A stretch of DNA of 51,987 bases from a phage, in the sequence record PZ715803.1; one strand, given 5' to 3'. The position numbers were made by a program, and so were the translations under genes. The notes under the pieces are model-generated. The model worked only from the letters and a program-made list of their open reading frames with translations, was not told the DNA's origin and made no database searches. Shown here in pieces: positions 2,373 through 51,986 of this stretch. How positions within the stretch are numbered: position 1 is the stretch's first letter; each line of letters opens with the position of its first letter.

Positions 2373-2742
2373 TAGTTGTTTTGTTTTTTCTGTTTTCTAA
2401 ACGTTCTCAGATGGCAAGAAAACAAATCTGACACGTAAGTTAATGATTAACATGTGTTATTTTTCTTGTTCCCTTGTTCTCTCAGATACGCCGGATTATA
2501 TACATACACATGAATGATGGCACATGCAGATACTCAGAAAGAAAAATCACCACAAACAACCAAAACCACAAGAAACACAGATAACAAGAAAAAACAAATA
2601 TACATACATAAATAAATAAACTATTGATTTTATATGTATATATCTATTTTATTGATTGTTTATTGCTCTTATGTTGTCTAAAATTTGCGCTAAATTTACG
2701 CCGTCTTAAATTCGATAACGCTGGAAAACAAAAAATAACAAG

Positions 2743-2784
2743 TAGCACTTTTTGCTAAACTCGGCTTGCCGGATCGTGTATAGT
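2743..2784 (+). promoter_or_regulatory. Variant copy of the 19-bp element (TAGCACTTTTTGCTAAA) followed 21 bp later by TATAGT; promoter of the lipoprotein cassette
   Basis: Same architecture as the element copies upstream of early genes; CAACAACAA leader then AGGAG RBS. Confidence 0.45.
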
Positions 2785-2815
2785 TACAGCCAACAACAAC
2801 TAAGGAGTATTGAAG

Positions 2816-3362: not shown

Positions 3363-3364
3363 TA

Positions 3365-7586: not shown

Positions 7587-7641
7587 GACTTTTAACCTTT
7601 TGTGCTGTTTCTTGGTTTGAACATTATAAAGGCACAAAAAA

Positions 7642-7658
7642 ACCCGCGCAAGGCGGGT
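7642..7658 (-). terminator. Hairpin ACCCGCGCAAGGCGGGT with flanking A/T runs, between I-like and J-like genes
   Basis: Inverted repeat with T7 on minus strand. Confidence 0.5.
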
Positions 7659-12872: not shown

Positions 12873-13506
12873 TATGTTTTGTTTGAATGAATCATTTCTA
12901 GCGCCTTTTGTTCCATGATGCGCAAATCATTTAGCGCCATCTCCCGATCCTCAATCTTGTAAATGTCAAAAAGCATAGGCAAAACGTTATAGTCGAACCC
13001 ATACACACTGCCGCTAGTCGATCTCCATTGCGTTTGCATTGCGCAAAACAGATCCCAAGATTGAAACATTGATTCATCAAAAATTACCTCCGGCGGCTCC
13101 TCCCCTTCGTAGTCTGAACGGGATAGGCCGACGGCCTCTAGTTGTGCGTCAGTTGGCGGCTTGAGGTAAAACAGGTAAACCGCCCGCTTTAGTTTTTTAC
13201 CCGCTGCCCCGCAAGTGCTTTCATATAATGACCAGTCAGCGATAATGACGCAGAAGGGTAATAATCCAGCAATTTAGCAACGTTTTCCTCGTTAAATTCA
13301 TCTTCCAGATCCCAACCGGAAGCAAGAAAGGTGATCATTTCTACGTCGCTCATCGGCTTTTCTGCCGTGTATCGTTCGTGAATCTCGCTTGCCTTCTTGT
13401 GGCGCACGGTAAAAACAATAACTTGCTCATCACCATTTGGAAGCACGAAAGAAACAGGTAGCTTAAAATCAGGCAGTGGGCCTAACGTTAGTTTCATCTT
13501 TGCCAT
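12872..13506 (-). CDS. Tail assembly chaperone G-T fusion made by programmed -1 frameshift at about 13192-13198
   Basis: Slippery heptamer A AAA AAC in register immediately before the G stop; -1 frame stays open for 106 codons into ORF 12872..13069. Confidence 0.6.
13189..13506 (-). CDS. Tail assembly chaperone (lambda G-like, zero-frame product)
   Basis: 105 aa between major tail and tape measure genes; ends at slippery site. Confidence 0.75.
   Translation of the reverse strand: MAKMKLTLGPLPDFKLPVSFVLPNGDEQVIVFTVRHKKASEIHERYTAEKPMSDVEMITFLASGWDLEDEFNEENVAKLLDYYPSASLSLTGHYMKALAGQRVKN
13192..13198 (-). other. Slippery heptamer AAAAAAC (X XXY YYZ) for -1 ribosomal frameshift
   Basis: Zero-frame codons GTA AAA AAC TAA read directly from the minus strand. 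Confidence 0.6.
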
Positions 13507-13520
13507 CTCAAGATCTCCTT

Positions 13521-13539
13521 ATAGCACTTTTTGTTAAAA
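13521..13539 (+). promoter_or_regulatory. 19-bp element copy (ATAGCACTTTTTGTTAAAA), antisense to the late operon; abuts the RBS of the G chaperone gene
   Basis: Exact consensus; followed on plus strand by TTGATT repeats and TAGATT. Confidence 0.5.
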
Positions 13540-13583
13540 GTGGAATTGATTTATTTGATAGATTGATTTTACAGGAATGAAAA

Positions 13584-13602
13584 AAGGGGCGCAACGCCCC
13601 TT
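13584..13602 (-). terminator. Intrinsic terminator (AAGGGGCGCAACGCCCCTT plus T6) after the major tail gene
   Basis: Strong hairpin and T-run on minus strand. Confidence 0.6.
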
Positions 13603-13605
13603 GTT

Positions 13606-14268
13606 TTACTTAACGTCAGAAGGTAAGAACGTGAATCGACCTTTCAGAGATACGGAAAGGGAAACAGTTTCCATTTCGTTCATAGTGGTTTGCGGAATGT
13701 CATTAAAAGACAATACGCCAGCCCAGCAACGCATCTCTTTAGCTTTCGGCACGTACATACGCAAAGCGGTTACGTCGCCGGATTCCTCAGCCTCGCGCAA
13801 GATCGGATAAATCGGATTATCATATTCATGTGCGAAAGTATAGGTAAGAGAAACGGCGCTCTTGTAGGTCGGCAACTGCTGTTCCTGGTCATCAGCCAAA
13901 CACTGATAAGTGTAATACTGTTGCTCGCCGCCGTCCTGCGCAAGATCCTGTACGCAAGGAATCTCTACCCATGATTTTACTTCTCGGAAGGTTGCTGTAT
14001 TAGAACCAGCCGGAAACACGTTTTGATCGGTTGTGTCTACACCTTCAAGAGTTACGCTTGCGTTATCAGATACTTCTTTTACCCGCAACACACGACTAAC
14101 CAGTTTACCCCAGGAAGACGTTTCAATCAGAACATAAGCACCTTTTTTGATCTGCTGTGAATTACTAACAGTAAAAACCGGATCTTTAGCGTTTGAAATA
14201 TCAGTAGCGCTAATTGGCTCACCCATATTAACGCCGATGAAAATTTGAGAACCATTAGGCAAGTGCAT
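13606..14268 (-). CDS. Major tail (tube) protein
   Basis: 220 aa directly upstream of chaperone G; strong AGGAGG RBS. Confidence 0.7.
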   Translation of the reverse strand: MHLPNGSQIFIGVNMGEPISATDISNAKDPVFTVSNSQQIKKGAYVLIETSSWGKLVSRVLRVKEVSDNASVTLEGVDTTDQNVFPAGSNTATFREVKSWVEIPCVQDLAQDGGEQQYYTYQCLADDQEQQLPTYKSAVSLTYTFAHEYDNPIYPILREAEESGDVTALRMYVPKAKEMRCWAGVLSFNDIPQTTMNEMETVSLSVSLKGRFTFLPSDVK

Positions 14269-14270
14269 GA

Positions 14271-14672
14271 TTATTCCTCCTTTGTATCAAGCCTAACACT
14301 GAAACGGATCGGCAAAAACCAACCTGTTTCACTTTTTAGTAATGCGTGGACGTTTGCCCCCTCGCTAATATAGCCAGTTTCAAGCATTCTACCATCATAG
14401 AAAAATCTCGCAATCTCTTTAGCCAGTAAACGCGCTTTATCAGTGCCACCGCCAGGAGGAATGACAATTCCAACCTGAACCAAACCGATATAAGAAACAC
14501 ATTTTCTATCAAGAGATATGCGATCCGTGTCTGCTTCCATGTAGTTAAATTTTAACCACATAGAACCGTCGCCAGGCGGTACAAAATCAACGTTTTCATA
14601 GGAGATCTTGAATCGTGATTCATATTCCGACGCCAGCGCCTTTCTTGCCGCCAACATTAAATCATAGTGCAT
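14271..14672 (-). CDS. Tail terminator / tail completion protein (U-like)
   Basis: 133 aa; position between neck proteins and major tail gene. Confidence 0.45.
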   Translation of the reverse strand: MHYDLMLAARKALASEYESRFKISYENVDFVPPGDGSMWLKFNYMEADTDRISLDRKCVSYIGLVQVGIVIPPGGGTDKARLLAKEIARFFYDGRMLETGYISEGANVHALLKSETGWFLPIRFSVRLDTKEE

Positions 14673-15105
14673 TTTTTGCCCTCGAATCCTTTATTGCCTT
14701 AGCCATATAAGATCGCAGCTTTACCGCCACGATTCCAAGTACGCCGGACGGCGCTTGTTTTGAATGACCGTATTCAAGCGCGTTGGCGTAAATAAGCATG
14801 TTTGAAAAATAGATTGACCGCACCGCGCCACCGCCACGCATGATTGCATATATTGCTCGCTTGCCTTCTGCAATGGTTTTACCACCATCGCGATCGTATT
14901 GGTTGAGCGCATATAGCGGCGGCTTGTTTGCTGTTATCTGCCAGTTAGCTTTATATCGGCCCGTGTCAACTGGCGAGCGATTTACAAGATCCTCGTGGAC
15001 GTTTGTCGCGAACATTTCAACGCAATCAACAAGGCCGCTGCTTACTGAATCAATCCACCTGCTTATATCACCGTGAAATTCCCTGATCTTATAGTTATCA
15101 GCCAT
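14662..15105 (-). CDS. Neck / tail-completion protein (HK97 gp10-like)
   Basis: GRYKANWQ motif; ATG 15105 with AAGGAGG RBS. Confidence 0.5.
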   Translation of the reverse strand: MADNYKIREFHGDISRWIDSVSSGLVDCVEMFATNVHEDLVNRSPVDTGRYKANWQITANKPPLYALNQYDRDGGKTIAEGKRAIYAIMRGGGAVRSIYFSNMLIYANALEYGHSKQAPSGVLGIVAVKLRSYMAKAIKDSRAKNAL

Positions 15106-15469
15106 GCACAGCAACCCTCCTTAATATCGGACGATAAGCCGCCGTGATGTTAGTCTGCCTGACTGGTCTTGCTTCAACGACAACATAACGTTCGCCATCA
15201 ATTTCAATCTGATAACCATTTTTGATCTCAGTTTCATTGGTGAATATCCCCAACTTGTCGGTTACTCGGATTGTTTCACCGTCAACCTCTCTAGTCCTCG
15301 GAGATCTAACAAGCCCCTTTATCATCACTGAAATCTCCGGCTTGGTAACTTCCTCTCCTCCGATAATCTCAACCCCTCCCTGCTGCGTGATGCACTTAAA
15401 CATACCGTTAGCGTCGCTGAAAAAGTTAATCCCAGCCGTAGCCATTCTTGCAATCTCATTGTAGTTCAT
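15098..15469 (-). CDS. Head-tail joining protein
   Basis: Position and size; GGAG RBS before ATG 15469. Confidence 0.45.
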
Positions 15470-15885
15470 CGGCAGCATCTCCGGCGCAATCCAGTCACAA
15501 GGCCAAAGCCGCCACCGTGCTTACGGTTTAACACTTCGTACATTTTGCCCCACGGCGTTTGTCGGATCTGCTTTCCGCTTGTATCGGAAGAAATTCGATC
15601 AAACGTCTGACTAAACTCACCAGTCAGAGTGAACGAGGCAACTCGGCGGGAGTAGCTTTCTACGCTTTCACCTTCCTGTTTCATTGCTCCGTCTAAGGTC
15701 ATAAGGTGAAGAGTGTAAAGCGCAACCGCTTTCGGGTATGAGTTTTTAAACCGTTTTTTGCAAACAAACTCTTTAGCAAGCTCAATCCATGCCACAATTA
15801 AATCGGGATCAACCTGTTGCATTGGTGGGGCCAACTTTACGATTTGCTGAACGATTTCAGCGTCTGTGTAAAATTCATCTACCAT
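15466..15885 (-). CDS. Head-tail connector / head completion protein
   Basis: 139 aa downstream of the capsid gene; GGAG RBS. Confidence 0.45.
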
Positions 15886-15931
15886 TTTGTTTTCTCCAGA
15901 TGCGACAAGGGGCGCATAAGCGCCCCAATTA

Positions 15932-16198
15932 TTAATATTCGCCGCCGTCCTCTAGCTCTTTGCGGCTCTTACCCTCGGTAGGATCTTTTTTGCGCTTCTT
16001 CTCCGCTTTCGCCTTGATTTGCTCGTTAATTTCGGAATTGTCTTTAACTTCAACATCACCGCGAGCGATCAGGTATTCAATTGCGGAATCATTAATGCGA
16101 TCGGATTCAATTTCAATTTCATCACCAGGATGATAACGCTTACCGTCCATAATAATCATGCAAACGCCAGTTACTTTAAGTTTTAAAGTTTTGCTCAT
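15932..16198 (-). CDS. Hypothetical head-associated protein
   Basis: ATG 16198 with GGAG RBS; basic Lys-rich C-terminus. Confidence 0.55.
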
Positions 16199-16223
16199 TT
16201 TGTGTACTCCATAAATAAAAAAA

Positions 16224-16244
16224 GGGGAACCCTTAAGGCTCCCC
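16224..16244 (-). terminator. Hairpin plus T-run after the major capsid gene
   Basis: GGGGA...TCCCC stem followed by T7ATTTAT on minus strand. Confidence 0.45.
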
Positions 16245-16255
16245 ATGTTATCTAA

Positions 16256-17227
16256 TTACACAGCTTTTTTCAAGCCAGTAATAAGCACCATCGTAAACGG
16301 ACGATAAATCGTAAGGCCAGTACACTTGGAAGTGCAAGGAACCTTGAAATGTAGGTCTTTTGGCTGCGCCGGAAGCATGTTAAACGCTTCTGGAATCTCA
16401 ATGCTCATGTTCATTGGATCTTTTTCGTAAACCAAGCAACCTTTCGTACCTTTGCCGTCAATATCCTCAAGCTCTGCAATAGAGTCGATAGTGATACCGC
16501 CGTTTTGCTTCTGGAAGTATTCCAGATAACTTTCAGTGGTATTTTCCATTCGAACCGTCAGGACTTTGCGCATGGACGGCGGGATCAGGATGTTGGTCGC
16601 GCGGTGCTGACCTTTGGTTACTTCCTCGATCGTTTCGATTGCGGCCTCCAGTTCATCGCTTGCCACTTCCGGGAACTTGGTATTGCCGTCATTGCTCATC
16701 CAGCCTTTAGAAACAATTTTCGTAAGGTTAGGGTGATCGAAAACGGAAACGATCTTATGAGGCTTGGAACCTTTGAACACCAGGAAGTTAATCAACTGAT
16801 CATGCGCATTTTGCGCAGCGTTAGCCTTGCGAGTTGACAGGCTCTTGCCAGTTCGCTGACCTGCTTTAATCTCATCAATGGAGATCAGATAAGCGTTACC
16901 CAGGCGGAACACTTTGCCAAACTCAGAAGTCATCAACGCGTCCACAGTCGGCAGATCATCGGTGTAGTCGGCGATAATTTTCGCGTAGCCAACCTTATCA
17001 AAAGTCTGATATTCGAAAGTCTTGTCAGTATCAGAAAGCTCGTTTGTTACAGGGAATACGCGAAGCGCGGAACCTGCCGGATATTCTTTCTCGTATGCGG
17101 TTGAGCGGATCTTGTGTAGCTCTTGAGCGGTCCAAATACCCATATCAGAAGCATCACCCTTAACGCCCTGAACCTGTAAATGATTTGCTACAATAGTAGC
17201 ATCTAATTCATCGTATTTTTTAGCCAT
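16256..17227 (-). CDS. Major capsid protein
   Basis: 323 aa from MAKKYDEL; position after scaffold and decoration-like genes. Confidence 0.75.
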   Translation of the reverse strand: MAKKYDELDATIVANHLQVQGVKGDASDMGIWTAQELHKIRSTAYEKEYPAGSALRVFPVTNELSDTDKTFEYQTFDKVGYAKIIADYTDDLPTVDALMTSEFGKVFRLGNAYLISIDEIKAGQRTGKSLSTRKANAAQNAHDQLINFLVFKGSKPHKIVSVFDHPNLTKIVSKGWMSNDGNTKFPEVASDELEAAIETIEEVTKGQHRATNILIPPSMRKVLTVRMENTTESYLEYFQKQNGGITIDSIAELEDIDGKGTKGCLVYEKDPMNMSIEIPEAFNMLPAQPKDLHFKVPCTSKCTGLTIYRPFTMVLITGLKKAV

Positions 17228-17244
17228 TTTGTTTCCTCCATAAA

Positions 17245-17266
17245 AGGCCGCTAAATGTAACGGCCT
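17245..17266 (-). other. Hairpin AGGCCG..CGGCCT between the element copy and the capsid RBS
   Basis: Perfect 6-bp stem, followed by TTTTATGGAGG on minus strand. Confidence 0.4.
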
Positions 17267-17271
17267 AGATG

Positions 17272-17290
17272 ATAGCACTTTTTGTTAAAC
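17272..17290 (+). promoter_or_regulatory. 19-bp element copy (ATAGCACTTTTTGTTAAAC), antisense orientation upstream of the major capsid gene
   Basis: 18/19 match to consensus. Confidence 0.5.
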
Positions 17291-17315
17291 GTGCAATGTT
17301 TTTTTATGCTATTAG

Positions 17316-21885: not shown

Positions 21886-21912
21886 GATTATATAACTTTT
21901 TAGCAATTAGTG

Positions 21913-23481
21913 CTATTTATTGCGTAGACCTGCCAGCTTTTTCATCCTTGCTACCGGATCATCTGCCAAATTCATTTCGACGTTAACAGCATCAACTATA
22001 TTATCGACAATATCATCATGGGGATGAGAATCATCAAAAGTGAATGCTGCAACCTCTGCCAGTATCTCAGGCAGCATGGGATGATTTTCTGGCAGTGCCA
22101 CACGTCCGGCCCTCATTACTGGCGCGGCGTCCATTGCTCGCGTCACCTTGTCATTGCTTCGCTGAACGGGATTTATATCAATCGGGATCTTCTTTTTGGC
22201 CCCCTGAATCAAACCCGTGCCGCTGGCCTTATCCTCAATGTGGATACGTCGCAAGCTGCCACACTCCTTATTGCGCTTCCAGCACTGGTTAACGAAGGCA
22301 ATAAAATTTAATTCAAGATCCGGCGCTTCCCACTTTCCGCGAATGCCATCAATGAAGTAAACGCGATTCTTATACATCCCCCAATAACAAAAAACCGAAT
22401 AGTCGTTAAGCTCTCCGGCCTTCTGCGCGGTATCTCCAGTAATAAATGTGTATTCAAAGCGATCCGGTTTTGGTAGTGCGCACTTTTCGCCGCTGCCGTA
22501 ATACTGGAACCACTCTGTTTTAAACACGTTCCCGCCAAGCGCGATTGGTTGCTGTTGGTATTGGCTGGCGAACGTGTAAGGATCTGCATTGCGCAATGCA
22601 AGCAACTCCTCCGCGCTTTCCTTCGCAGGCCAAAATGAATAATGAGCGACGCCATCTATCATCACTGGCTTACTTGACAGCACATCACGATCAAATTCAG
22701 GCTTCAACCAATCAGGAAGCGTTTCGCGGTATTCTTTCGTAACCAGCGCCGGAATGCTCACGACTTTAAACTCAATACCACCCATCCCGCCATTAAGCAT
22801 GAACCAGGTGGAATCATTAACGTGTAGTCGCTGTTGCACCATAACAATTGGCGTGGTGTCTTTCATTCGACGCGATCGCACTGTGTTTTTTAACCTCATG
22901 TGAATAGCCTCGCGCTTGACCTTAGAAAGCATATCATCCGGCTTGTCTGGATCGTCAAGAACCAGCATACCAGTAAAACCATCATCCATATAGCCGCCAC
23001 GCAAACCTGTTACCTGGCCGCCAATAGAACGTGAGTTGACTTGCAATTTAACCTTGCCGCCTTCGGTGACTATCAGATCTTTAGCGCTCGCCTTTGCCAG
23101 TTTTCCAGGCCATAGCTCTTGCCACTCAGGAGAACCGATAATCTCCTTTATCCGGTTGCTGTTTTGCTGGACAAGGCCATCACTAAACGAAAGGTTAAGG
23201 TTTCTCACTTTCCGGCTTTTCAATGACGCGTAGGGTGACATGTGGATCGAGAAAATCTCAGTCTTGCCGCTACCTGGCGTAATGTTGAAAATCACATTCT
23301 GCGACTCTCCATTGATGATCTTCTCTACCTCACTGCACAATAAGCTAAAATGCCAGTTGCTCTGGAATTTTTGCCCCTGCAATAATTGGAACCAGATTCT
23401 GATCATCTTTTCGAATGAATGCTCACTGATTTCTTTAATGGCTCGCTTTTGCGCCGCCGTCAAATCTTCCCATATGATCAT
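21913..23481 (-). CDS. Terminase large subunit
   Basis: 522 aa; ATPase Walker A (TPGSGKTE) and Walker B-like VLDDPD; start overlaps TerS stop. Confidence 0.9.
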   Translation of the reverse strand: MIIWEDLTAAQKRAIKEISEHSFEKMIRIWFQLLQGQKFQSNWHFSLLCSEVEKIINGESQNVIFNITPGSGKTEIFSIHMSPYASLKSRKVRNLNLSFSDGLVQQNSNRIKEIIGSPEWQELWPGKLAKASAKDLIVTEGGKVKLQVNSRSIGGQVTGLRGGYMDDGFTGMLVLDDPDKPDDMLSKVKREAIHMRLKNTVRSRRMKDTTPIVMVQQRLHVNDSTWFMLNGGMGGIEFKVVSIPALVTKEYRETLPDWLKPEFDRDVLSSKPVMIDGVAHYSFWPAKESAEELLALRNADPYTFASQYQQQPIALGGNVFKTEWFQYYGSGEKCALPKPDRFEYTFITGDTAQKAGELNDYSVFCYWGMYKNRVYFIDGIRGKWEAPDLELNFIAFVNQCWKRNKECGSLRRIHIEDKASGTGLIQGAKKKIPIDINPVQRSNDKVTRAMDAAPVMRAGRVALPENHPMLPEILAEVAAFTFDDSHPHDDIVDNIVDAVNVEMNLADDPVARMKKLAGLRNK

Positions 23482-26053: not shown

Positions 26054-26110
26054 TGCGCTTTCCTCTGTTTCGCTTCAATAAGGGCACTTTACCAAATGCC
26101 CTTGCGGAAG

Positions 26111-26129
26111 TTTTAACAAAAAGTGCTAT
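26111..26129 (-). promoter_or_regulatory. 19-bp element copy, then 22 bp, then TAAAGT; promoter module for 25841..26053 and downstream genes
   Basis: Exact consensus on minus strand abutting the stop codon of 26129..26416. Confidence 0.55.
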
Positions 26130-27375: not shown

Positions 27376-27445
27376 TGTGATTTCCTCTTGATTGTTGATG
27401 TGAGCATTATAGCGGGGCCGATAACCCCGCGTTTAGCAATTCGTG

Positions 27446-28036
27446 CTATTTAATCTGTGTGTGCTTCCATTTGACAGTATTGACGATCTCGTTTACAGCC
27501 AGCTCCGGCTTGCCGTCCTGCAAGTGGAAATCATAGTGGTGGATTCGATAGTGATAACCGCTCAGGTCAATGTAGTCTCTCGAATCGCCAGCAAACGTGA
27601 AGCCGTCGCGATGCAATCGGCAAATATGCACTTCATGCCCTGCCTTAACCAGCGGCTTGATTTCTTCGGGGAATCCGCCATCACTGATCACAACCGCCAA
27701 ATCTCGGTACATCTCGTGAATCTCTTCAACCATTCGACGCCCGAAATAGTGATCTCCAAAAACTGGCTTCATTACATCCTCGCTAATCCAGATCATGAAT
27801 TGTCGAGGTGACTTGCCGCCTAAGATAACTTGAGGCTTTTCTTTTTGTTCTCGGTCGTTGTACAGGTCCATAAATTCATCGTATCTGTACACGCCCAGCA
27901 TGGAAAACGCAATATCGAACATCGGCTGTTTGAATGACGCCTTAACCGCTGGGTAACGATGGCCCGTTAGGTAAGCTGCAATAGTGTCCTTTCCACAACC
28001 AGGCGGCCCATTAAGGATAATAATGTCTCGCTTCAT
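27446..28036 (-). CDS. P-loop kinase (polynucleotide kinase-like)
   Basis: Walker A GPPGCGKDT at N-terminus; 196 aa. Confidence 0.75.
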   Translation of the reverse strand: MKRDIIILNGPPGCGKDTIAAYLTGHRYPAVKASFKQPMFDIAFSMLGVYRYDEFMDLYNDREQKEKPQVILGGKSPRQFMIWISEDVMKPVFGDHYFGRRMVEEIHEMYRDLAVVISDGGFPEEIKPLVKAGHEVHICRLHRDGFTFAGDSRDYIDLSGYHYRIHHYDFHLQDGKPELAVNEIVNTVKWKHTQIK

Positions 28037-28876: not shown

Positions 28877-28932
28877 GATTTAATCCTCGTTTGTTGTTGA
28901 TGGGCTTACTATACCGCAAGCCCGTTGAGATG

Positions 28933-28951
28933 TTTTAACAAAAAGTGCTAT
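28933..28951 (-). promoter_or_regulatory. 19-bp element copy, then 22 bp containing a hairpin, then TATAGT
   Basis: Exact consensus; last base overlaps the phosphatase stop codon. Confidence 0.55.
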
Positions 28952-30192: not shown

Positions 30193-30246
30193 CGTTTTAT
30201 CTCCTTCGTTGAAAGTGAGGCCATTATACCTGGCCCCACATTTGAG

Positions 30247-30265
30247 TTTTAACAAAAAGTGCTAT
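30247..30265 (-). promoter_or_regulatory. 19-bp element copy, then 21 bp, then TATAAT
   Basis: Exact consensus element and consensus -10 hexamer. Confidence 0.6.
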
Positions 30266-31384: not shown

Positions 31385-31463
31385 GGTGCTTTCTCCTGAT
31401 TGGTTTTGTGGGCGACGCCGTGCCGCCCTATGTGATTTATTATGCCTGGTTATCGCTTTCGAG

Positions 31464-31482
31464 TTTTAACAAAAAGTGCTAT
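31464..31482 (-). promoter_or_regulatory. 19-bp element copy, then 22 bp, then CATAAT
   Basis: Exact consensus; directly downstream of the stop of 31483..31668. Confidence 0.55.
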
Positions 31483-31869: not shown

Positions 31870-31926
31870 TTTTGTTTCCTCAATCTCGTTTCGATGAGGC
31901 TATTATGCCAGGCTTTGCGCCTGGCG

Positions 31927-31945
31927 TTTTAACAAAAAGTGCTAT
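31927..31945 (-). promoter_or_regulatory. 19-bp element copy, then 22 bp containing hairpin GCCAGGC..GCCTGGC, then CATAAT
   Basis: Exact consensus; stop codon of the upstream lipoprotein gene embedded in the element. Confidence 0.55.
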
Positions 31946-33280: not shown

Positions 33281-33299
33281 ATAGCACTTTTTGTTAAAA
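33281..33299 (+). promoter_or_regulatory. 19-bp element copy, then 22 bp, then TACATT; promoter of the rightward early operon
   Basis: Exact consensus; CATCGAAAC leader and GGAGA RBS follow. Confidence 0.55.
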
Positions 33300-33358
33300 C
33301 TCAGGCCACCTGATCGGGTACATTGCACACATCGAAACGAACCGCTCAGGAGATAGCA

Positions 33359-34584: not shown

Positions 34585-34603
34585 ATAGCACTTTTTGTTA
34601 AAA
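34585..34603 (+). promoter_or_regulatory. 19-bp element copy, then 22 bp, then TACATT
   Basis: Exact consensus immediately after the stop codon of 34321..34584. Confidence 0.55.
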
Positions 34604-34661
34604 CTCAATCCTCGTATTCCTGTACATTACACGCATCGACAACGAATGCGAGGATTTGAAA

Positions 34662-34814: not shown

Positions 34815-35094
34815 GTTTTACAGCTACACCGACACAGTTGATTTTGAGGGGATACAATTGCCCCTCCCAAATATATACCGCTATATCACTCGTGACGAGC
34901 GCGGATTTATTGAAGCCTGGCGCGCTAAGCCAGTGCGGGATCTTGAATTTGGCGGCTTCCGTTCGCTTGAAGGTGAATTGCCGATCTGCTTTGGTCATCA
35001 AAGCGGTGAAAGCCTTCCTGTTGTTGCGCGTAAGTATCGCCGCCACAAGATCACAAGGCAACTTATCTCTTTAACTGGAAAAGTTGTTGAATAG
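34804..35094 (+). CDS. Hypothetical protein
   Basis: ATG 34804 with GGAG RBS. Confidence 0.55.
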   Translation: MSSKFYSYTDTVDFEGIQLPLPNIYRYITRDERGFIEAWRAKPVRDLEFGGFRSLEGELPICFGHQSGESLPVVARKYRRHKITRQLISLTGKVVE

Positions 35095-35109
35095 CACTTT
35101 TTGTTAAAA
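35091..35109 (+). promoter_or_regulatory. 19-bp element copy, then 22 bp, then TGgTATATT (extended -10-like)
   Basis: Exact consensus; stop codon TAG of the upstream gene inside the element. Confidence 0.55.
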
Positions 35110-35165
35110 ACGATGTGCGCCTGAATGGTATATTACACCCATCGACAACAAGAGAGGATTTAAAG

Positions 35166-36582: not shown

Positions 36583-37293
36583 ATGTATAAAGGTTTAATA
36601 TTCTCCCTATTTGATGGATCTGGCAAAGCCGTTAAAGATTGGGCTGATAATGGCTATAAGTGCATTTGCTTTAATGCTGACGGTGGCGATCACGGTGATT
36701 ACCAGTCAGTGCGCATACAGCATGAGAATATCGAATACGTTAACGTCTGGATTGATGAAAGATTTTACCACCGCGCGCGCTGGGAGGAATGGGGCATTCC
36801 TGACTTTATTATGGCATTTCCGCCGTGCACCGACCTTGCAAATAGCGGATCTCGCCATTGGGCCAAAAAACGCCTTGAGAATCCATCGTTCCAGGATGAG
36901 GCCGCCGACACTTGCAGAATCGCGGCTGATATAGCTGATTATTTCGGTGTTCCTTACATGATCGAAAATCCGGTTGGCAAGTTGTCAACGTTATGGCGAA
37001 AGCCTGATTATACGTTCCATCCGTGCGATTACGCTGGCTATCTGCCGGAAGATGATAAACATCCCGACTTCCCTGATATTATTCCGGCACGGGATCGCTA
37101 TTTTAAGAAAACGTGCCTCTGGACTGGCAACGGCTTTGTTATTCCTCCGCGCGCTTTAATCCTGCCGAAAGAGGAAGACAAAGATAATCCAGGCTGGGCC
37201 AAAACTGGCGGTAAGTCATCGCGCACAAAGATGATCCGCTCCCTCACTCCGCGCGGATTTGCTCGCGCCGTCTTTGAGTCAAACTCAAAATAG
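36583..37293 (+). CDS. Putative DNA (cytosine-5)-methyltransferase-like protein
   Basis: FDGSGK (motif I-like), FPPC (catalytic Pro-Cys, motif IV-like), ENPVG (motif VI-like); ATG 36583 with GAGGT RBS. Confidence 0.5.
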   Translation: MYKGLIFSLFDGSGKAVKDWADNGYKCICFNADGGDHGDYQSVRIQHENIEYVNVWIDERFYHRARWEEWGIPDFIMAFPPCTDLANSGSRHWAKKRLENPSFQDEAADTCRIAADIADYFGVPYMIENPVGKLSTLWRKPDYTFHPCDYAGYLPEDDKHPDFPDIIPARDRYFKKTCLWTGNGFVIPPRALILPKEEDKDNPGWAKTGGKSSRTKMIRSLTPRGFARAVFESNSK

Positions 37294-37308
37294 CACTTTT
37301 TGTTAAAA
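37290..37308 (+). promoter_or_regulatory. 19-bp element copy, then 22 bp containing hairpin GCCAGG..CCTGGC, then CATAAT
   Basis: Exact consensus with stop codon TAG of the MTase gene embedded. Confidence 0.55.
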
Positions 37309-37362
37309 GCCAGGTGTAAAAACCTGGCATAATCACATCGAACAAACAAAGGAGATCTGATC

Positions 37363-37749: not shown

Positions 37750-37967
37750 TAAACAGTGAAAACCGTTACAAAGTAACGCATTCTACCACAAAGACTTTCA
37801 AGCCTGGCGATATAGTCAGGCCCATCAAAAAAACGGCGGTAGGTTGGCTGATTGGTTTTTCATATCATAAGGCGCTTTACTTTACGTTTAAGGATGGGAT
37901 TACAGGAGAATGCTACAGCGACCGCCAGCCTGATCGACTTCTGGTTGCAATAGAGCGGATCAAATAG
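37746..37967 (+). CDS. Hypothetical protein
   Basis: 73 aa; overlapping start. Confidence 0.6.
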   Translation: MINSENRYKVTHSTTKTFKPGDIVRPIKKTAVGWLIGFSYHKALYFTFKDGITGECYSDRQPDRLLVAIERIK

Positions 37968-37982
37968 CACTTTTTGACAAAA
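37964..37982 (+). promoter_or_regulatory. Element variant with TTGACA (ATAGCACTTTTTGACAAAA), then 22 bp, then TAAAAT
   Basis: Single T-to-C change creates a consensus -35-like hexamer. Confidence 0.5.
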
Positions 37983-38035
37983 CGGGGTAGTATTGGGCCG
38001 TTAAAATTTACGGCCCACAAAGGAGAAGCTAACGA

Positions 38036-40125: not shown

Positions 40126-40144
40126 ATAGCATTTTTTGTTAAAA
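40126..40144 (+). promoter_or_regulatory. Element variant (ATAGCATTTTTTGTTAAAA), then 22 bp hairpin, then TATATT; left arm of a 45-bp inverted repeat with the copy at 43369-43387
   Basis: About 30 bp identical to the reverse complement of 43343-43387. Confidence 0.55.
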
Positions 40145-40205
40145 CGCCCGGCCTAGTGTCGGGTATATTTGTTTCATCGAAACGAAACAACCAAAAGGTA
40201 AAATT

Positions 40206-43311: not shown

Positions 43312-43368
43312 TTTTATTTCCTCATGTTTGCTTCGTTGAAATAATTATGCCCGACACTAGGCCGGGCG

Positions 43369-43387
43369 TTTTAACAAAAAGTGCTAT
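43369..43387 (-). promoter_or_regulatory. 19-bp element copy, then hairpin, then CATAAT; right arm of the 45-bp inverted repeat; candidate promoter of the lysis-containing operon
   Basis: Exact consensus; stop codon of 43387..43644 abuts the element. Confidence 0.55.
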
Positions 43388-44374: not shown

Positions 44375-44438
44375 TTCATTTCTCCGCTATTAAAAGCTAT
44401 CTCGTGTTATTGAATTATGGCGCAATCCATCGCGCCAG

Positions 44439-44457
44439 TTTTAACAAAAAGTGCTAT
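44439..44457 (-). promoter_or_regulatory. 19-bp element copy, then 22 bp, then CATAAT; promoter module upstream of dam
   Basis: Exact consensus immediately after the VRR-NUC stop. Confidence 0.55.
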
Positions 44458-44873
44458 TTAAGCATGTATTCAATAGCCAACTTAAACTGATTAAATCCGT
44501 AGGCGACCGCAGCGAATCCTCCTAAGCTGCGAACTCGACGCAAAAAAGCCTTTTGTTCATCGCTGACTGGTGATGCTTTACCCTTGCCTGATTTATTCAC
44601 TCGTTTGATCTCAATCGCTGCAAATGGGTATTTCCCGTTTAAACCAATCAGGATGATGAAATCGCTTACTCCCTTAACCAAGCCGGACTGCTGATCAATC
44701 ATCGCCGTTGCTTTAGACTTCTCATTCTCGTTTACCGTATGCCACGCCAGCAAATAAGGATGAGCATAAGTCAACCACTGAAAACTATCTATCTGGTGAT
44801 TAACTTCCCTTCTCGTGTCGGTTGGATCTCTTTCGTAAAACTCAAGATAATCGCCTTTATCAGTTATAGCCAT
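44454..44873 (-). CDS. VRR-NUC domain nuclease (PD-(D/E)XK)
   Basis: 139 aa; D...E-x-K segment (SDFIILIG...AIEIKR). Confidence 0.7.
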   Translation of the reverse strand: MAITDKGDYLEFYERDPTDTRREVNHQIDSFQWLTYAHPYLLAWHTVNENEKSKATAMIDQQSGLVKGVSDFIILIGLNGKYPFAAIEIKRVNKSGKGKASPVSDEQKAFLRRVRSLGGFAAVAYGFNQFKLAIEYMLK

Positions 44874-46870
44874 TAAACAAACTCCCGTTTTGCAATGTTA
44901 TCCTCACCTTTGCCGTTCTTGCGATGCGTTACGCGTACAGGCGGCATGATGTGATGAGCGTATGACATTATTTTACGCGCATTTCTATAGCTCGCCACCA
45001 TACCAGCAATCTTGCGATCCGGTATGTGCTGCAATGCTATTTTTCTCCATATCGTACGGCAAATGTTGCTTTCTGACTCAGGGAAAAATCTTTCGTATGC
45101 CTTGAACGTGTCGCCGTTTGCCTCAAGCTCATAGCAAAAAACAATTCCTTTCTGGTTTTTCGTCATATCAACGCGGAAAGATTTAACGTTGCACCAATCG
45201 TTTTTGGTGTAGTGCTTGCCGCTTAACTTCTCGTTAGGATCGACAAGAGAAATATCGCAACAACGGCATACTCTCGCCACTACGTCGTTTTTTGTTCCGC
45301 AACCGCGCTTGATTATCTTTTTCGTTCTCGGATCTACCTGGTCCTCGCAAATTCTGTAAGTCCAAAAATGCTCGCATCTCTTCCCGTTATCGTCTACGTG
45401 CATACATCGGCGAGCGTAAAAGCTGTTTAGCGTTCCACATATCGGGCAAGTCTTAGGCTCTTTCCCGTTTGTAAACCTCTTTTGGAATTGCGCTTGCTCA
45501 AGGATTGGATCGAAATACAAATCCCCTAACTCATCCATAGTACCAGCAAAATCCAATACAAGATGGTCTTTTTTCTTGAATCCCTGCTCAATGTGCCATT
45601 GCTTAAGCAGTCGCATACCGCGCCCCAAAAGCTGGATAAGCAATGTTAGAGATCCTATCTTTCTCAGTATTACAGAAGTATCCCAAAACGGAACGTTAAC
45701 GCCAGTGGTAAGCGCCTGTACCTGGAAGATGTATTTTACTTTTCCCTCGTATGCCTCCCTCAGCCACTCTTTACGCTGATTGTCTCCAGTCTTGCCAGTT
45801 ATGATCCTGTATTCAACGCCTGGCGGCAGTGCGGCGGCGGCCTCCTTGCAGTGTCTTTCCCCTGCGCATGTAACTAAAACTCCGTTCCTGTCTTTGCATA
45901 TCTCATGGACTTTAGCCATGATTTTCTGTGTCATTGTTGCGTCTTGATGGATCTTTTCTTCCATCTTGCGCAATGTTTTAGCGTCAAAGTCTGAAACGCC
46001 ATCCTCGCTACTGGCTTCGAACTCTGAAAGGTCATACCCCAGGTCGCCTACGTCGCCGAAATTTGTTGGCACTACAGAACCGAATTTGATTAAGTAGTTT
46101 GTGTCTATGTTAGTCACCTGCTCACGCCAGAATCCCTTTTTGTTCTTATCTTCAACCAGTATTGGAACCACGCCGCGAAATTCAGATCCAGTCATACCGA
46201 ATATTCGCAATTCGTGCCCGTATGCCTCGCGACACCTGCGCATCATTTCCATGATTATTACCGTGTACTGTGTGCGTCCTGTTCCGAACATTGGATCGCC
46301 ATTGGAATCAAATTGCTGTTCTTCTCCAATCAGTACAGGCAAATCCTTCTTAGTGGTCATCTGCTGGTAAGATTCATTATTTTCTATCGCGTCGGCGAGA
46401 TCCTCCCAATCCACCTGGTGACATTCATCAATACCGATAACGTGCGGAACATAATCACCTAACGACTTAAACAATCCGTTTACCACAGTGCCCTCAGAAC
46501 CGACTACGATCGGAAAGTATGCGCTTTTTGTTTTCAGTCCGGCGCAATAGATTGAGTTTGGCACGCCAAGATTGCTGATCTCTTCTGAATCCTGATCAAC
46601 AATTTCAGCCTGACGAGCAAGCACCATCATTTTCAATCCCATTTTGCGGCATTGCGCCGCAACCATCGCAAACATCAATGTTTTGCCAGCCGACACAGAA
46701 GCCTTAACAAAGAAAGGATGCTCATAGTTTTTCATGCGCTTTGCGATCTCGGCATACGCAACGCACTGATAAGGATAAGGCACTATATTGCCAACAGTGA
46801 ATCGCTCTTGGATGCTTTTTATTACTGCCTCGCCTAACGCTGATATTTGTTTTTCGATATTTGGAATCAT
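44873..46870 (-). CDS. SF2 DExH-box helicase with C-terminal Cys-rich zinc-ribbon region
   Basis: Walker A SAGKT, DECH box, multiple CxxC pairs in the C-terminal 200 aa. Confidence 0.85.
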   Translation of the reverse strand: MIPNIEKQISALGEAVIKSIQERFTVGNIVPYPYQCVAYAEIAKRMKNYEHPFFVKASVSAGKTLMFAMVAAQCRKMGLKMMVLARQAEIVDQDSEEISNLGVPNSIYCAGLKTKSAYFPIVVGSEGTVVNGLFKSLGDYVPHVIGIDECHQVDWEDLADAIENNESYQQMTTKKDLPVLIGEEQQFDSNGDPMFGTGRTQYTVIIMEMMRRCREAYGHELRIFGMTGSEFRGVVPILVEDKNKKGFWREQVTNIDTNYLIKFGSVVPTNFGDVGDLGYDLSEFEASSEDGVSDFDAKTLRKMEEKIHQDATMTQKIMAKVHEICKDRNGVLVTCAGERHCKEAAAALPPGVEYRIITGKTGDNQRKEWLREAYEGKVKYIFQVQALTTGVNVPFWDTSVILRKIGSLTLLIQLLGRGMRLLKQWHIEQGFKKKDHLVLDFAGTMDELGDLYFDPILEQAQFQKRFTNGKEPKTCPICGTLNSFYARRCMHVDDNGKRCEHFWTYRICEDQVDPRTKKIIKRGCGTKNDVVARVCRCCDISLVDPNEKLSGKHYTKNDWCNVKSFRVDMTKNQKGIVFCYELEANGDTFKAYERFFPESESNICRTIWRKIALQHIPDRKIAGMVASYRNARKIMSYAHHIMPPVRVTHRKNGKGEDNIAKREFV

Positions 46871-46926
46871 CTTAAACCTTTAAAAAATGCCATTTGGAGT
46901 ATATAATAGACTCATTACAATAAACT

Positions 46927-46945
46927 GTTTTAACAAAAAATGCTA
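46927..46945 (-). promoter_or_regulatory. Element variant (ATAGCATTTTTTGTTAAAA), then 22 bp, then TATTAT; promoter of the helicase operon; also abuts the RBS of the divergent gene at 46958
   Basis: 18/19 match; located in the divergent intergenic region. Confidence 0.5.
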
Positions 46946-46957
46946 TGAGGTGACTAG

Positions 46958-47434
46958 ATGAAAGATGCACGAATTGCAGTGTCTACGGGTGAGATCGACA
47001 AGCGCACTATTAACGGTAACAACGGAACGCGACGAGGTAAAGACAAAAAGCCACGAAAACACCGAACCGGATTTCTTATCCTGCGAGATGAGGTAAAAGC
47101 AAGCCTGAAATCTCGCCTTGACATTCTGATCGAGTATTACGGCGGCGTTCCTGCTATGGCTCGACGTCTGCGCGTATCTCAGCAAGTCGTTAACCAGTGG
47201 CGAAAGCGTGGTATGATTTCAGCCGCTGGAGCACAAAAGGTGCATAACGACTACAAATATAATGGATGCAAAGGATACCGCGCCTCGTTTTGTCGTCCAG
47301 ATCTGCGGTTTGATTCTAACGGCAAGCCTCTTACTACCCGTTGCGACAAATACGAAATGTTGCGCGTAGTCAAAAATTCAGACTACGAACCAGGCGGACG
47401 ATTCTACAAAGGTGATAACAGCACGAATAGCTAA
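46958..47434 (+). CDS. Helix-turn-helix DNA-binding protein
   Basis: Cro/CI-like HTH segment (MARRLRVSQQVVNQWRKRG); GAGGTGA RBS. Confidence 0.65.
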   Translation: MKDARIAVSTGEIDKRTINGNNGTRRGKDKKPRKHRTGFLILRDEVKASLKSRLDILIEYYGGVPAMARRLRVSQQVVNQWRKRGMISAAGAQKVHNDYKYNGCKGYRASFCRPDLRFDSNGKPLTTRCDKYEMLRVVKNSDYEPGGRFYKGDNSTNS

Positions 47435-48418: not shown

Positions 48419-48435
48419 AACTCCGCTAGTATTAC

Positions 48436-48459
48436 CCCGCTTATGCGGGGTTTTTTTTT
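48436..48459 (+). terminator. Intrinsic terminator (CCCCGCTTATGCGGGG plus T9)
   Basis: Perfect hairpin and long T-run; hairpin sequence resembles the one at nt 6-23. Confidence 0.7.
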
Positions 48460-48490
48460 GCATTTGAAAATGCTATTATCTGCATTGTCA

Positions 48491-48507
48491 TTAGCAAAAA
48501 GTGCTAT
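48491..48507 (-). promoter_or_regulatory. Element variant (TTAGCAAAAAGTGCTAT on plus), inverted relative to and abutting the RBS of the tail fibre gene
   Basis: Core GTGCTATTTA shared with copies at 21892 and 27428. Confidence 0.45.
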
Positions 48508-51500: not shown

Positions 51501-51986
51501 GAGTTTAAACTTGATAATGGTTATCTTTTTTATGCTCAGCAAAATACTGATAGTTCAAGGGTGCTCCAGGTGAATGGGGTTGCGCAAGCAACGGCATTTA
51601 ACCAGACTTCTGATCGTGACTTGAAGGACAACATCAAAGAGATTGAGAACGCAACTGAATCATTGCGCAAAATGAGCGGATACACTTACACGCTTAAGGA
51701 GAATGGTTTACCTTATGCTGGGGTAATTGCTCAAGAAGTAATGGAGGCAATACCGGAAGCGGTTAGCGGATTCACTCAGTACACGGATCTTGCTGGTCCA
51801 ACTAAGGATGGAAATCAGTTAGTTGGCGAGGAGAGATTCTTATCTGTTGATTATGGTGCTGTTACTGGATTGCTTGTGAAAGTATGCCGTGAAAGTGACG
51901 ATCGCATAAGCAAACTTGAAAAGGAGGTTGCAGAATTAAAAGATTTACTGTCAAAGCTAATCAACAATCCTACTACTCTTAACTAA
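48525..51986 (+). CDS. Side tail fibre protein with C-terminal intramolecular chaperone (peptidase S74-like) domain
   Basis: 1153 aa; C-terminal SDRDLKDNI...coiled-coil typical of auto-cleaving fibre chaperone domains; GGAGG RBS. Confidence 0.8.
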   Translation: MAIYRQGQASMDAQGYVTGYDTKWREQLTLIRPGATIFFLSEQLQAAVITEVINDTSIRAISTGGVEVPRTNYIILLHDSLTVDGLAQDVAETLRYYQGKEAVIEEAIEFFKTFKDWDRVNEIVQQIKEYSDSAKTSADNAAQANVSANQWAQNASNSASESKTARDQSVAANNAAQQAKTDAQNANASAQGAKDNAAQSAADALNYRNQAQSIVGSDIGLGSAPRDCPDISGNPSGYIGFMRIMASAKGFPSIASGESSLTGFISQVDGSPAYTGIFQGWASRSLYTYRWSTGTGPQWTRHARKDEVSRLSQIANDQTRLYAGNGTTYFEIGNDRAWGVYDSASGQWKPLDLAQGGTGGRNAGQARQNLQVFQEQKTDLADKNINDLTGEYSGVYRQTTNSKATSANGYPVEAAGSLVVLINGANKPSGCIQIYYPYNDNKKFYIRFYDAATSTWRAWAQWNQPEDTDDFRNRIGLGRNNVRDFLTLGLRSTYSQPLSISSQNPTIRFDETDRPSGSPLYEFVFDGGNWRIQKGGEGFKGEYVLSYEYANDRIVIGNLKADNIFVPRDKLQNTKDNLLIPNTGLARWIDYNAPAGAESGKYYPVVITHPAGWNGDAFIEVSMRTRSLSGSQEPNCNMIHLWIRDAGWSDMGQGAFGHYHCYDSGEVAILCVRGTDKGQYPHNVVYVRGDAFPIRLSTTVGCTVTIPTADWRPSTASDSPIYKWGIADANDGTTSEFGCTNLLNFTRGRTGFYSNNQFVDGNGNKYLRDGLGDGGTITLGIANLVNNGKITSNGGVIAQGDLTEEFSFISKLTDAGVTTVIGQSEFRAGENQGQVVVRDLTSSGNHKFFNFNLDGTFGAPLGYVTQTGTDWNTQQTDNVNKFRPIAGQANSPENNVVYGGFHIGFSGSYGAQFAMRNNRAAFRTIEAGQFGGWNRLATWATDNEWSGKSYHNQAVILRGSSSSKDFKIQNDKNSAIGGTINLWGASSRPTVMEFKLDNGYLFYAQQNTDSSRVLQVNGVAQATAFNQTSDRDLKDNIKEIENATESLRKMSGYTYTLKENGLPYAGVIAQEVMEAIPEAVSGFTQYTDLAGPTKDGNQLVGEERFLSVDYGAVTGLLVKVCRESDDRISKLEKEVAELKDLLSKLINNPTTLN

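Follow-up and report, generated by a model that had tools for sequence, protein, structure and literature searches.

A 20-bp intergenic element is repeated in the genome of a T1-like virulent siphovirus (sequence record PZ715803.1), which the window analysed here (i.e. the whole stretch of 51,987 bp) covers essentially completely, and this element is a marbox-type site, for which binding by a regulator of the MarA/SoxS/Rob type is predicted from its sequence. Sixteen copies precede co-oriented genes with the geometry of the Escherichia coli micF promoter. Copies at the late genes share a position in or just after a putative sigma70-type promoter and not an orientation, and on balance they are probably operators through which a marbox-binding factor (probably host Rob, MarA or SoxS) would modulate the late promoters, probably negatively. 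The original prediction had grouped the copies upstream of the tape-measure chaperone (G), major capsid, tail-fibre and helix-turn-helix (HTH) protein genes as inverted elements of a single kind; these are different situations and not one class. All of the evidence is in silico: we infer the identity of the binder, the sign of its effect and all transcription start sites, and the starts given below are predicted throughout. The element itself had been described before; its match to the marbox and the proposed role of its copies at late genes appear to be new in the literature searched.

The repeated element has the sequence of a marbox

A scan of the window with the 15-mer core of the element returned 18 matches at ≤2 mismatches as compared to 0.34 expected (~50-fold), and none of 100 shuffled sequences reached 18. 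These copies fit the consensus aaATAGCACnnnTTGnTAAAA that a 2024 re-annotation of phage TLS gave for its '21-nt direct repeat', for which it listed 18 intergenic copies (DR1-18). The TLS paper also reported the repeat for T1, Rtp and Rogue1, distinguished the sub-types TTT, GAA and AAA, described the repeats as running with transcription ~76 nt ahead of start codons, and suggested stoperators, enhancer sites or UP elements, whilst naming the function of the repeat among its open questions. Using standard tools, its authors had found three sigma70-like promoters only.

The marbox is an asymmetric 20-bp DNA site bound as a monomer by the AraC/XylS-type regulators MarA, SoxS and Rob (and RamA), with a marbox/soxbox consensus published as AYNGCACNNWNNRYYAAAY(N) and also written AYNGCACNNWNNRYYAAAYN (PMC2064960, PMC3709825). 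Scanning the window for AYNGCACNNWNNRYYAAAY(N) yielded 20 sites at ≤1 mismatch as compared to 1.36 expected, a number reached in 0/100 shuffles. The copies at 17272 and 27431 matched exactly, and the commonest lone mismatch elsewhere was an A at the final Y. The copy at 21897-21916 was identical at 15/15 positions to the consensus derived from chromatin immunoprecipitation, gcactaattgctaaa (PMC5684230). With all copies aligned in one orientation, the element lacked dyad symmetry. Phages of E. coli, Klebsiella, Salmonella, Cronobacter and Citrobacter share the element, and these hosts all possess MarA/SoxS/Rob-type regulators.

Similarity to a characterized promoter extended beyond the site itself. 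The micF promoter of E. coli K-12, read directly from the genome, consists of ACAGCACTGAATGTCAAAAC followed by 18 nt and TAGAAT; the phage promoters consist of ATAGCACTTTTTGTTAAAAC followed by 18 nt and TAnnnT, i.e. they have the micF spacing and share 15/20 bases with the micF site. In cryo-electron microscopy papers on Rob and RamA, the micF site falls at about -41; its GCAC spans -47..-44 and its AAA half covers the -35 region.

Several other identities for the element were considered and rejected. A UP element (i.e. a site for the C-terminal domain of the polymerase alpha subunit), which would be an A/T-rich tract at -38..-59 with no specific G/C positions ahead of a functional -35, was discarded on account of the invariant GCAC at -47..-44 and because the element reaches -31 and replaces the -35 (AAAACn at -35..-30). 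A stoperator-type site was discarded given the occurrence of both orientations, the mostly fixed register to a -10 box, the virulent nature of the phage and the Cro/YdaS-like character of the only HTH protein detected. Sites for IHF, Fis and CRP and the T4 MotA-box, compared by eye with their consensus sequences, each showed several mismatches or the wrong spacing, and the TTGTTA of the element lies 22 bp from the -10, which does not suit a -35.

Searches were also made for a prior link and for a phage-encoded binder. Literature searches combining marbox, MarA or Rob with phage T1 or Drexlerviridae produced no paper linking them, and those using sequence strings found nothing relevant. MarA, SoxS and Rob queries, run with phmmer against the 602 six-frame open reading frames (ORFs) of the window, gave no match below E = 0.1. 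Pfam analysis of 21 phage proteins detected no HTH_18 or HTH_AraC domain; the single HTH protein detected was Cro/YdaS-like.

Forward copies have the layout of the micF promoter

The nearest relative of the phage is Escherichia phage tiwna (96% identity; Drexlerviridae, Tempevirinae, Warwickvirus). Between about 4 and 24 kb the minus strand carries the structural genes; from 25 to 47 kb follow the early and middle genes, in three blocks that alternate in direction; the primase and tail-fibre genes are found at the right end of the window.

Sixteen copies of the element (class A) are in forward orientation with the sequence ATAGCAC-NNN-TTGnTAAAAC, each starting at or a few bases from an upstream stop codon. 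The order of features is element, 18 (rarely 17) bp, TAnnnT or CATAAT, a box resembling CATCGAAACGA, a Shine-Dalgarno (SD) sequence and a co-oriented gene. A class II promoter is defined by a forward marbox that overlaps the -35 and is centred between -36 and -55. The class A elements, at -50..-31 with a centre at -40.5, have this geometry. They are located on the plus strand at 2742..2761, 33281..33300, 34585..34604, 35091..35110, 37290..37309, 37964..37983 and 40126..40145, and on the minus strand at 26110..26129, 27430..27449 (a GAA variant that fits the degenerate marbox consensus exactly), 28932..28951, 30246..30265, 31463..31482, 31926..31945, 43368..43387, 44438..44457 and 46927..46946, the last being the helicase promoter, which also abuts the HTH gene. 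The 'promoter orientation' assumed in the original prediction is therefore well founded, with 16 copies of ATAGCAC...TAAAAC followed by TAnnnT at 18±1 bp and then by a co-oriented gene.

This arrangement is widespread. For nearly every forward copy in five genomes, which represent four subfamilies or genera, TAnnnT stood exactly 18 bp past the 20-mer, with a co-oriented gene 50–65 nt farther along; T1 (Tunavirinae), a Braunvirinae phage and a Klebsiella Webervirus shared this architecture. The TLS description (i.e. with transcription and ~76 nt before the start codon) holds for the 16 class A copies. The inverted copies at 13521, 17272 and 48488, 14–44 nt from the start codon, depart from it, as do those at 7590 and 21897, which are forward yet promoter-proximal.

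Other features of these modules were observed. The early and middle blocks are all punctuated by micF-like promoters (i.e. marbox, 18 bp and TAnnnT) that are unrecognised in the published T1 and TLS annotations. A GC-rich hairpin is often present in the 18-bp spacer and sometimes around the -10 (e.g. 43340-43367, 31898-31925 and 37310-37330), and the T1 GenBank record marks several such spacer hairpins as rho-independent terminators (e.g. T1 38973-39001); each class A module may therefore be a terminator and promoter combined. A box with the sequence CATCGAAACGA, CATCGACAACA or CATCAACAACA follows most class A -10s by 5 nt (e.g. 31876-31886 and 33330-33340) and was present in all genera examined.

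Copies at late genes lie in or just after predicted promoters

The four copies of the original prediction were all found where it had placed them, i.e. ATAGCACTTTTTGTTAAAA at 13521-13539 (+), ATAGCACTTTTTGTTAAAC at 17272-17290 (+), ATAGCACTTTTTGCTAA at 48491-48507 (minus-strand reading) and ATAGCATTTTTTGTTAAAA at 46927-46946 (minus-strand reading), and their distances to the start codon (14 nt for the G chaperone, 44 nt for the capsid, 17 nt for the tail fibre and 11 nt for the HTH gene) were taken as agreeing with the 14–45 nt proposed. Direct contact with the SD sequence was seen for three copies but not at the capsid gene, where a hairpin and T-run intervene. Inversion relative to the gene applies to the G, capsid and fibre copies, whereas the HTH copy is the ordinary forward element of the helicase promoter. 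Nor are late-gene copies always inverted, as forward copies occur at the tail-tip gene (7608..7590, -) and ahead of the portal gene (21916..21897, -).

At the major capsid gene (16256..17227, -; 323 aa), the marbox-like 20-mer ATAGCACTTTTTGTTAAACG (17272..17291, +) has the opposite orientation to the gene and spans -29..-10 of a predicted promoter, P_MCP. The sequence and an alignment of relatives place the extended -10 of P_MCP (TGC + TATCAT) at 17269..17277 (-) and its -35 (TTGCAC, 3/6 in the window) at 17291..17296 (-), with a 16-bp spacer and an upstream A-tract. The element covers the spacer and the first three bases of the -10. In eight phages from six genera the same order of A-tract, TTGnnn, 16 bp and TAnnnT was found, the inverted element being the spacer and contributing the TAT of the -10 through its ATA end; the -35s include TTGCAC, TTGACG, TTGAAC, TTGATT and TTGACC and the -10s TATCAT, TATTAT, TATATT, TATGAT and TATTCT. 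The T1 promoter (TTGACG-16-TATTAT) scores 10/12 with an extended -10 TG and is the sole promoter-like site in that region, and the homologous promoter was annotated by the depositors in the SA32RD GenBank record. Inversion of the capsid copy was observed in 9/10 phages; Rtp has a canonical capsid promoter without the element. At the class II position for antisense transcription, TAnnnT was present in 0/9 phages, and the constant 'TA' there belongs to the stop codon of the upstream gene. Located at -29..-10 and lacking an antisense -10, the capsid copy is therefore predicted to lie outside the sense transcript and to drive no antisense RNA.

A hairpin (GGCCG...CGGCC + TTTT; 17246..17265, -) lies between P_MCP and the SD sequence and is annotated as a terminator in TLS (T35) and SA32RD. 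The predicted P_MCP start (~17262) falls inside the 5' arm of this hairpin in the window, T1, TLS, PGN590 and ESP2949-1, such that read-through transcripts could form the terminator and those started at P_MCP could not. In table S1 of the TLS paper, DR7 (15044..15024, negative strand) is inverted within the positive-strand late region beside 'terminator' T35, a feature on which the authors did not comment. The TLS text states that all repeats follow the direction of transcription, yet DR7 is inverted, and T35 is directly downstream of the capsid promoter.

The tail-fibre gene (48525..51986, +), whose frame is open to one base before the window end (51987), is preceded by the 20-mer ATAGCACTTTTTGCTAATGA (48488..48507, -), which has a degenerate 3' half, is inverted, covers about +3..+22 of the leader and adjoins the SD sequence AGGAGG. 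A sense extended -10 promoter (TGC+TATTAT, TGCTATTAT; 48471..48479, +) directly follows the T-run of the primase gene terminator (48434..48459, +). The T1 fibre gene has TTGCAA-17-TAAAAT and then the element (34902-34921) at -3..+17, and the Braunvirinae phage 26046III has TGATACAAT and then the element at about -4..+16; hence a fibre element is kept at the predicted transcription start in three subfamilies. No antisense -10 was found at the class II position of this copy in the window (TTTCAA), T1 (TACCTG) or 26046III.

The G-chaperone gene (13189..13506, -; 105 aa; SD AAGGAG at 13520..13515) has its copy, ATAGCACTTTTTGTTAAAAG (13521..13540, +), in inverted orientation; the copy covers about +20..+39 of the predicted leader and is separated from the ATG by 14 nt. 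The sense promoter, P_G, consists of a -10 (TAAAAT; 13566..13571, -) and, 17 bp away, a -35 (TTGCGC; 13589..13594, -) inside the terminator of the major tail protein gene, a hairpin at 13584..13602 with terminator-like scores for both strands in the scan. An antisense -10 (TAGATT; 13559..13564, +) follows the element at exactly 18 bp; it is separated by 1 bp from the sense -10 and has a predicted start at ~13571 that leads into the terminator hairpin. The P_G -10 (TAAAAT, TACAAT, TAATAT, TATAAT or CATAAT) is conserved in 10/11 phages with or without the element, and a -35 (TTGCGC, TTGCAC, TTGCGT or TTGTGC) is present at 16–17 bp in 8 phages. The inverted element is confined to the window phage, tiwna, T1, SA32RD and PGN590 (i.e. 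Warwickvirus, Hanrivervirus and Tunavirus), and all 5/5 of these have an antisense TAnnnT (TAGATT, TAAGAT, TACGAT or TATCAT) at precisely the class II spacing; the four lineages that lack the copy have no TAnnnT at the equivalent position. Rtp has a forward class II promoter at this site. The G site is thus, as predicted from these sequences, an interdigitated divergent promoter pair. Comparison of orientation in relatives, as the original prediction had proposed, hence gave differing outcomes, with inversion in 9/10 phages at the capsid gene and, at the G site, inversion in five phages, a forward copy in Rtp and no copy in five others.

Two further observations concern this region. Promoters appear to be built into terminators at 13566-13594 (-) and 7623-7651 (-), with the -35 TTGCGC in the hairpin loop or 3' arm and the T-run as spacer; this arrangement is kept ahead of the G-chaperone gene in 8–10 phages and was seen at the tail-tip gene too. 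An ORF of 77 aa (13577-13810, +) opens shortly after the antisense start predicted here and runs opposite to the major tail gene; it has poor SD-ATG spacing and is probably spurious.

The HTH/helicase pair repeats the layout of the G site. A forward marbox (46927..46946, -) serves the predicted leftward promoter of the helicase gene (44873..46870, -), with 18 bp between the element and a -10 (TATTAT; 46903..46908, -) and with the start of the gene 56 nt on. The same copy lies at about +13..+32 of the leader of the Cro/YdaS-like HTH protein gene identified by Pfam (46958..47434, +; 158 aa), 11 nt before its ATG. P_HTH (TTTAAA-17-TATAAT, 10/12; 46879..46907, +) shares its -10 region with the leftward class II promoter, the two -10s overlapping. 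T1 has the same arrangement.

Forward copies were found at two other late positions. In the tail-tip leader, ACAGCACAAAAGGTTAAAA (7590..7608, -) is located downstream of P_J (7623..7651, -; TTGCGC at 7651..7646, 17 bp and TATAAT at 7628..7623) and ahead of the ATG at 7586, with the AAGG of the element constituting the SD sequence; homologues are T1 25021 and TLS DR8. The copy ATAGCACTAATTGCTAAAAA (21897..21916, -) lies between the terL stop codon and the terminator ahead of the portal gene; at class II spacing it has GATTTT and no TAnnnT, and a TATAAT occurs just 4 bp after the element. In T1, a forward copy adjoins the terS SD sequence.

The feature common to the late-gene copies is a position in or just after a predicted sigma70-type promoter and not their orientation. 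Position outweighs inversion because a forward copy occupies the tail-tip leader. By definition, marbox repression sites may have either orientation and have their centre between -35 and +25 of a sigma70 promoter. Relative to the predicted starts, the capsid (about -19.5), fibre (~+12 in the window and +7 in T1) and tail-tip (~+18) copies are inside this range, and the HTH (~+22) and G (~+29) copies are at or beyond its edge. Three predicted leaders folded no better than shuffled sequences (z = 0.0, 0.0 and +2.1). The shared position and the unremarkable folding argue for a double-stranded DNA site and against an RNA signal.

Two further promoter arrangements for the inverted copies were rejected. 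A forward sigma70 promoter made by the element at the G and fibre copies (TGCTATAAG and TGCTATTTA) would have no T at -7 and no -35, and would start inside or after the SD sequence. Class I activation (i.e. a reverse marbox at -56..-85) is incompatible with start codons 11–44 nt away, as transcription would begin inside the genes.

A proposed operator role and its alternatives

In the proposed scheme, a marbox-binding protein would activate the 16 class A promoters of the early and middle genes in the manner of micF. At the late copies the same protein would be unable to make its activating contacts and would instead occupy the spacer, start site or early leader. At the capsid gene, the bound factor would sit inside the spacer and the upstream half of the conserved sigma70 -10 and, at the tail-fibre gene, across the transcription start. 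At the G-chaperone and HTH genes the element in the early leader would in addition constitute a class II promoter in the divergent direction, with a -10 that adjoins the sense -10 or overlaps it, such that polymerase recruited to one promoter would exclude the other. The effect on late promoters would most likely be negative, through occlusion or promoter competition, and late-gene output would be coupled inversely to the factor driving the early and middle promoters. As no AraC-type protein was detected in the phage, a host protein is the likeliest binder; of these regulators Rob is constitutive, and MarA, SoxS and RamA are stress-induced.

Precedents exist in the host. The pbpG promoter, which has a marbox over its spacer, is subject to repression by MarA, SoxS and Rob, and rob itself is reportedly repressed by MarA. 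The E. coli rob promoter (NC_000913.3 4635311-4635410) contains AGCAAAAAATGCTATTAT, which agrees with T1 P_MCP at 16/18 positions and has the element and the -10 joined in an identical register. A forward micF-like sequence, CACTGAATGCTAAAAC, is also present in the rob promoter 12 bp upstream of TATTAT.

Several points weigh against an operator role for a host regulator. T1-like phages grow rapidly in unstressed laboratory cells; MarA and SoxS are scarce without stress and Rob is largely sequestered. The -35 of the window P_MCP matches at just 3/6 positions and this promoter was missed by the consensus scan. TLS, YSP2, Sushi, ESP2949-1 and HCF1 lack the G copy and Rtp has it forward, so that it is dispensable. 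MarA bound in the spacer of the sigma28 promoter flgBP2 (marbox at -16..-30) activates transcription by distorting base pairing at -11 (PMC12781870), the position that the capsid copy abuts. A literature search gave no Drexlerviridae transcriptome, the candidate paper concerning a T5-like phage, and the starts are those predicted here. A phage protein of another fold could also be the true binder.

The flgBP2 example suggests the same site with the opposite sign, i.e. that the bound factor aids the late promoters and the inverted copies are activator sites. MarA activates flgBP2 from between the -10 and -35 (PMC12781870), the ATA of the P_MCP element is the TAT of the -10 so that the site edge falls at -12..-10, and the capsid gene requires the highest expression. 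This possibility is nevertheless considered unlikely: flgBP2 is a sigma28 promoter, the sigma70 promoters with a spacer marbox (pbpG and, reportedly, rob) are repressed, and activation is inapplicable to copies at +3..+39. The GCAC of the P_MCP element (GTGC in the sense strand) also overlaps the extended -10 TG contacted by sigma70 region 3, making co-occupancy with sigma70 doubtful. A binder encoded by the phage (e.g. the HTH product of 46958-47434), with convergent or coincidental resemblance to the marbox, seems about as improbable. The HTH gene is flanked by elements in the window and T1 in a layout like that of autoregulation, middle-gene activators are often phage-encoded, and Rob is reported to be mostly inactive in unstressed cells, but the absence of dyad symmetry fits a monomer with two HTH motifs and not a Cro-type dimer site. 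The 15/20 bases and 18-bp spacing in common with micF, the presence of a 15/15 consensus match among the copies and conservation over phages of five enterobacterial hosts that have these regulators likewise favour a genuine marbox.

Antisense transcription, in which inverted copies are active promoters for short RNAs that regulate neighbouring late genes, had been one of two readings offered by the original prediction. It stays plausible at the G copy, where TAnnnT is kept at the exact class II spacing in 5/5 phages though the 18-bp spacer has diverged, and where the window RNA would be ~40 nt long and end at the hairpin scored as a terminator on both strands. The absence of an antisense -10 from the capsid (0/9) and fibre copies and the forward tail-tip copy do not fit, and the antisense terminator tail is not conserved in T1, SA32RD and PGN590, so that no conserved RNA product is evident; as a general account, this is distinctly unlikely. 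Still less credit is given to the inverted copies being relics, i.e. leftovers of promoter cassettes that were inverted or recombined, or else neutral decoys, without a regulatory role at these loci. The forward, inverted and absent states at the G site in Rtp, T1-type and other phages do look like cassette turnover, and the 3' half of the fibre copy is degenerate, but the capsid copy persists in 9/10 phages of 6–7 genera with an identical -35/-10 register whilst its flanks diverge, and the fibre copy stays at the transcription start in three subfamilies. The other original reading, a signal in the leader RNA, is very improbable. According to this idea, UUUUAACAAAAAGUGCUAU beside the SD sequence binds a protein or pairs with the AUAGCAC...UAAAAC of read-through early mRNAs; the G, fibre and HTH copies are indeed within predicted leaders, 0–8 nt from the SD sequence, and read-through early transcripts would hold >13 perfectly complementary copies. 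The capsid copy, however, is upstream of the predicted start of its promoter, the tail-tip leader carries the opposite strand of the element, leader folding is no better than that of shuffles, and conservation of the same 20 bp whichever way the element points is accounted for most simply by a site in double-stranded DNA. Abutment is not conserved, since 8–9 nt separate the element from the SD sequence in T1. What survives of the proposal that these copies regulate late genes is a role as candidate DNA operators overlapping sense promoters, and not as an RNA signal.

An extension of the operator reading, put forward as speculation that is unlikely to be correct in full, is a copy-number timer, in which a host regulator runs the early and middle promoters, holds down the late ones and is titrated by replication. 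Constitutive Rob (or stress-induced MarA, SoxS or RamA) would switch on the ~16 micF-like promoters at infection and would restrain the sigma70 promoters of the capsid, tail-assembly and tail-fibre genes via spacer and leader marboxes. Replication would then multiply the ~20 near-consensus marboxes per genome and titrate the limited regulator, whereupon early transcription would fade and late transcription would be released. If so, phage development would be sensitive to bile salts, salicylate, oxidants and antibiotics that alter MarA/SoxS/Rob activity.

Comparison with known regulatory systems

The class A promoters resemble micF-type class II promoters in having an asymmetric 20-bp AYNGCACNNWNNRYYAAAY site, in forward orientation over a poor -35, 18 bp to the -10 and 15/20 shared bases. 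They differ in that ~16 near-consensus copies are present in one 52-kb virulent genome, with GC-rich spacer hairpins and a conserved CATCGAAACGA after the -10; binding in the phage is a prediction. The core-promoter marboxes of pbpG and rob are alike in lying over the spacer (pbpG) and in the AGCAAAAAATGCTATTAT register (rob), whereas in the phage the genes are those for virus structure, some sites are at or after the start, and repression is suggested by analogy. The flgBP2 marbox is similarly between the -35 and -10 and next to -11, but involves sigma28 and activation and lies at -16..-30 as compared to -13..-27 for the P_MCP core. The TLS 21-nt repeats are the same element, described without a link to the marbox or discussion of inverted copies. 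Mycobacteriophage L5 stoperators, as raised in the TLS paper, are also numerous asymmetric sites in short phage intergenic spaces, but they serve a temperate-phage repressor as a one-orientation block to elongation, whereas here most copies keep a fixed register upstream of a -10 box, and the phage is virulent and is not known to have a repressor. With respect to phi29 p4, the factor acting on this phage would probably be host-encoded and the polarity is apparently reversed. Protein p4 is a single factor that activates promoters lacking a -35 and represses others according to site position, as is proposed here, but it is phage-encoded, binds upstream inverted repeats, activates late genes and represses early ones.

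T1 is one of the seven classic T phages and the ordering of its gene expression was never worked out. The marbox identity and micF geometry turn the question left open in the TLS paper into a concrete hypothesis and provide promoter predictions for annotation of Drexlerviridae genomes. The late-gene copies, undescribed in the literature searched, point to use of this one site in positions where it would not activate, and would probably repress, the promoters of capsid and tail genes. Confirmation would mean that virulent enterobacterial phages of an entire family, including the Klebsiella Webervirus phages of therapy studies, rely on or react to host regulators of multidrug resistance and stress, and would tie exposure to antibiotics or bile to phage productivity.

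Further observations

Distant homologues of the capsid protein in Vibrio and Shewanella fall outside Drexlerviridae. About 20 records labelled 'Campylobacter phage' (e.g. A113, MG065680) are closely related to the window phage, with 89% capsid identity; their closeness to this E. coli phage suggests mislabelled hosts or contamination in those records. Finally, a small plus-strand operon (2810-3979, +) lies inside the minus-strand late region and is apparently transcribed from the class A promoter at 2742. The first of its products starts with MKKLIAVIATVAALTGC, a lipoprotein signal, and the tiwna homologues of its products are annotated as outer-membrane or membrane-associated proteins, suggesting genes of the superinfection-exclusion type.

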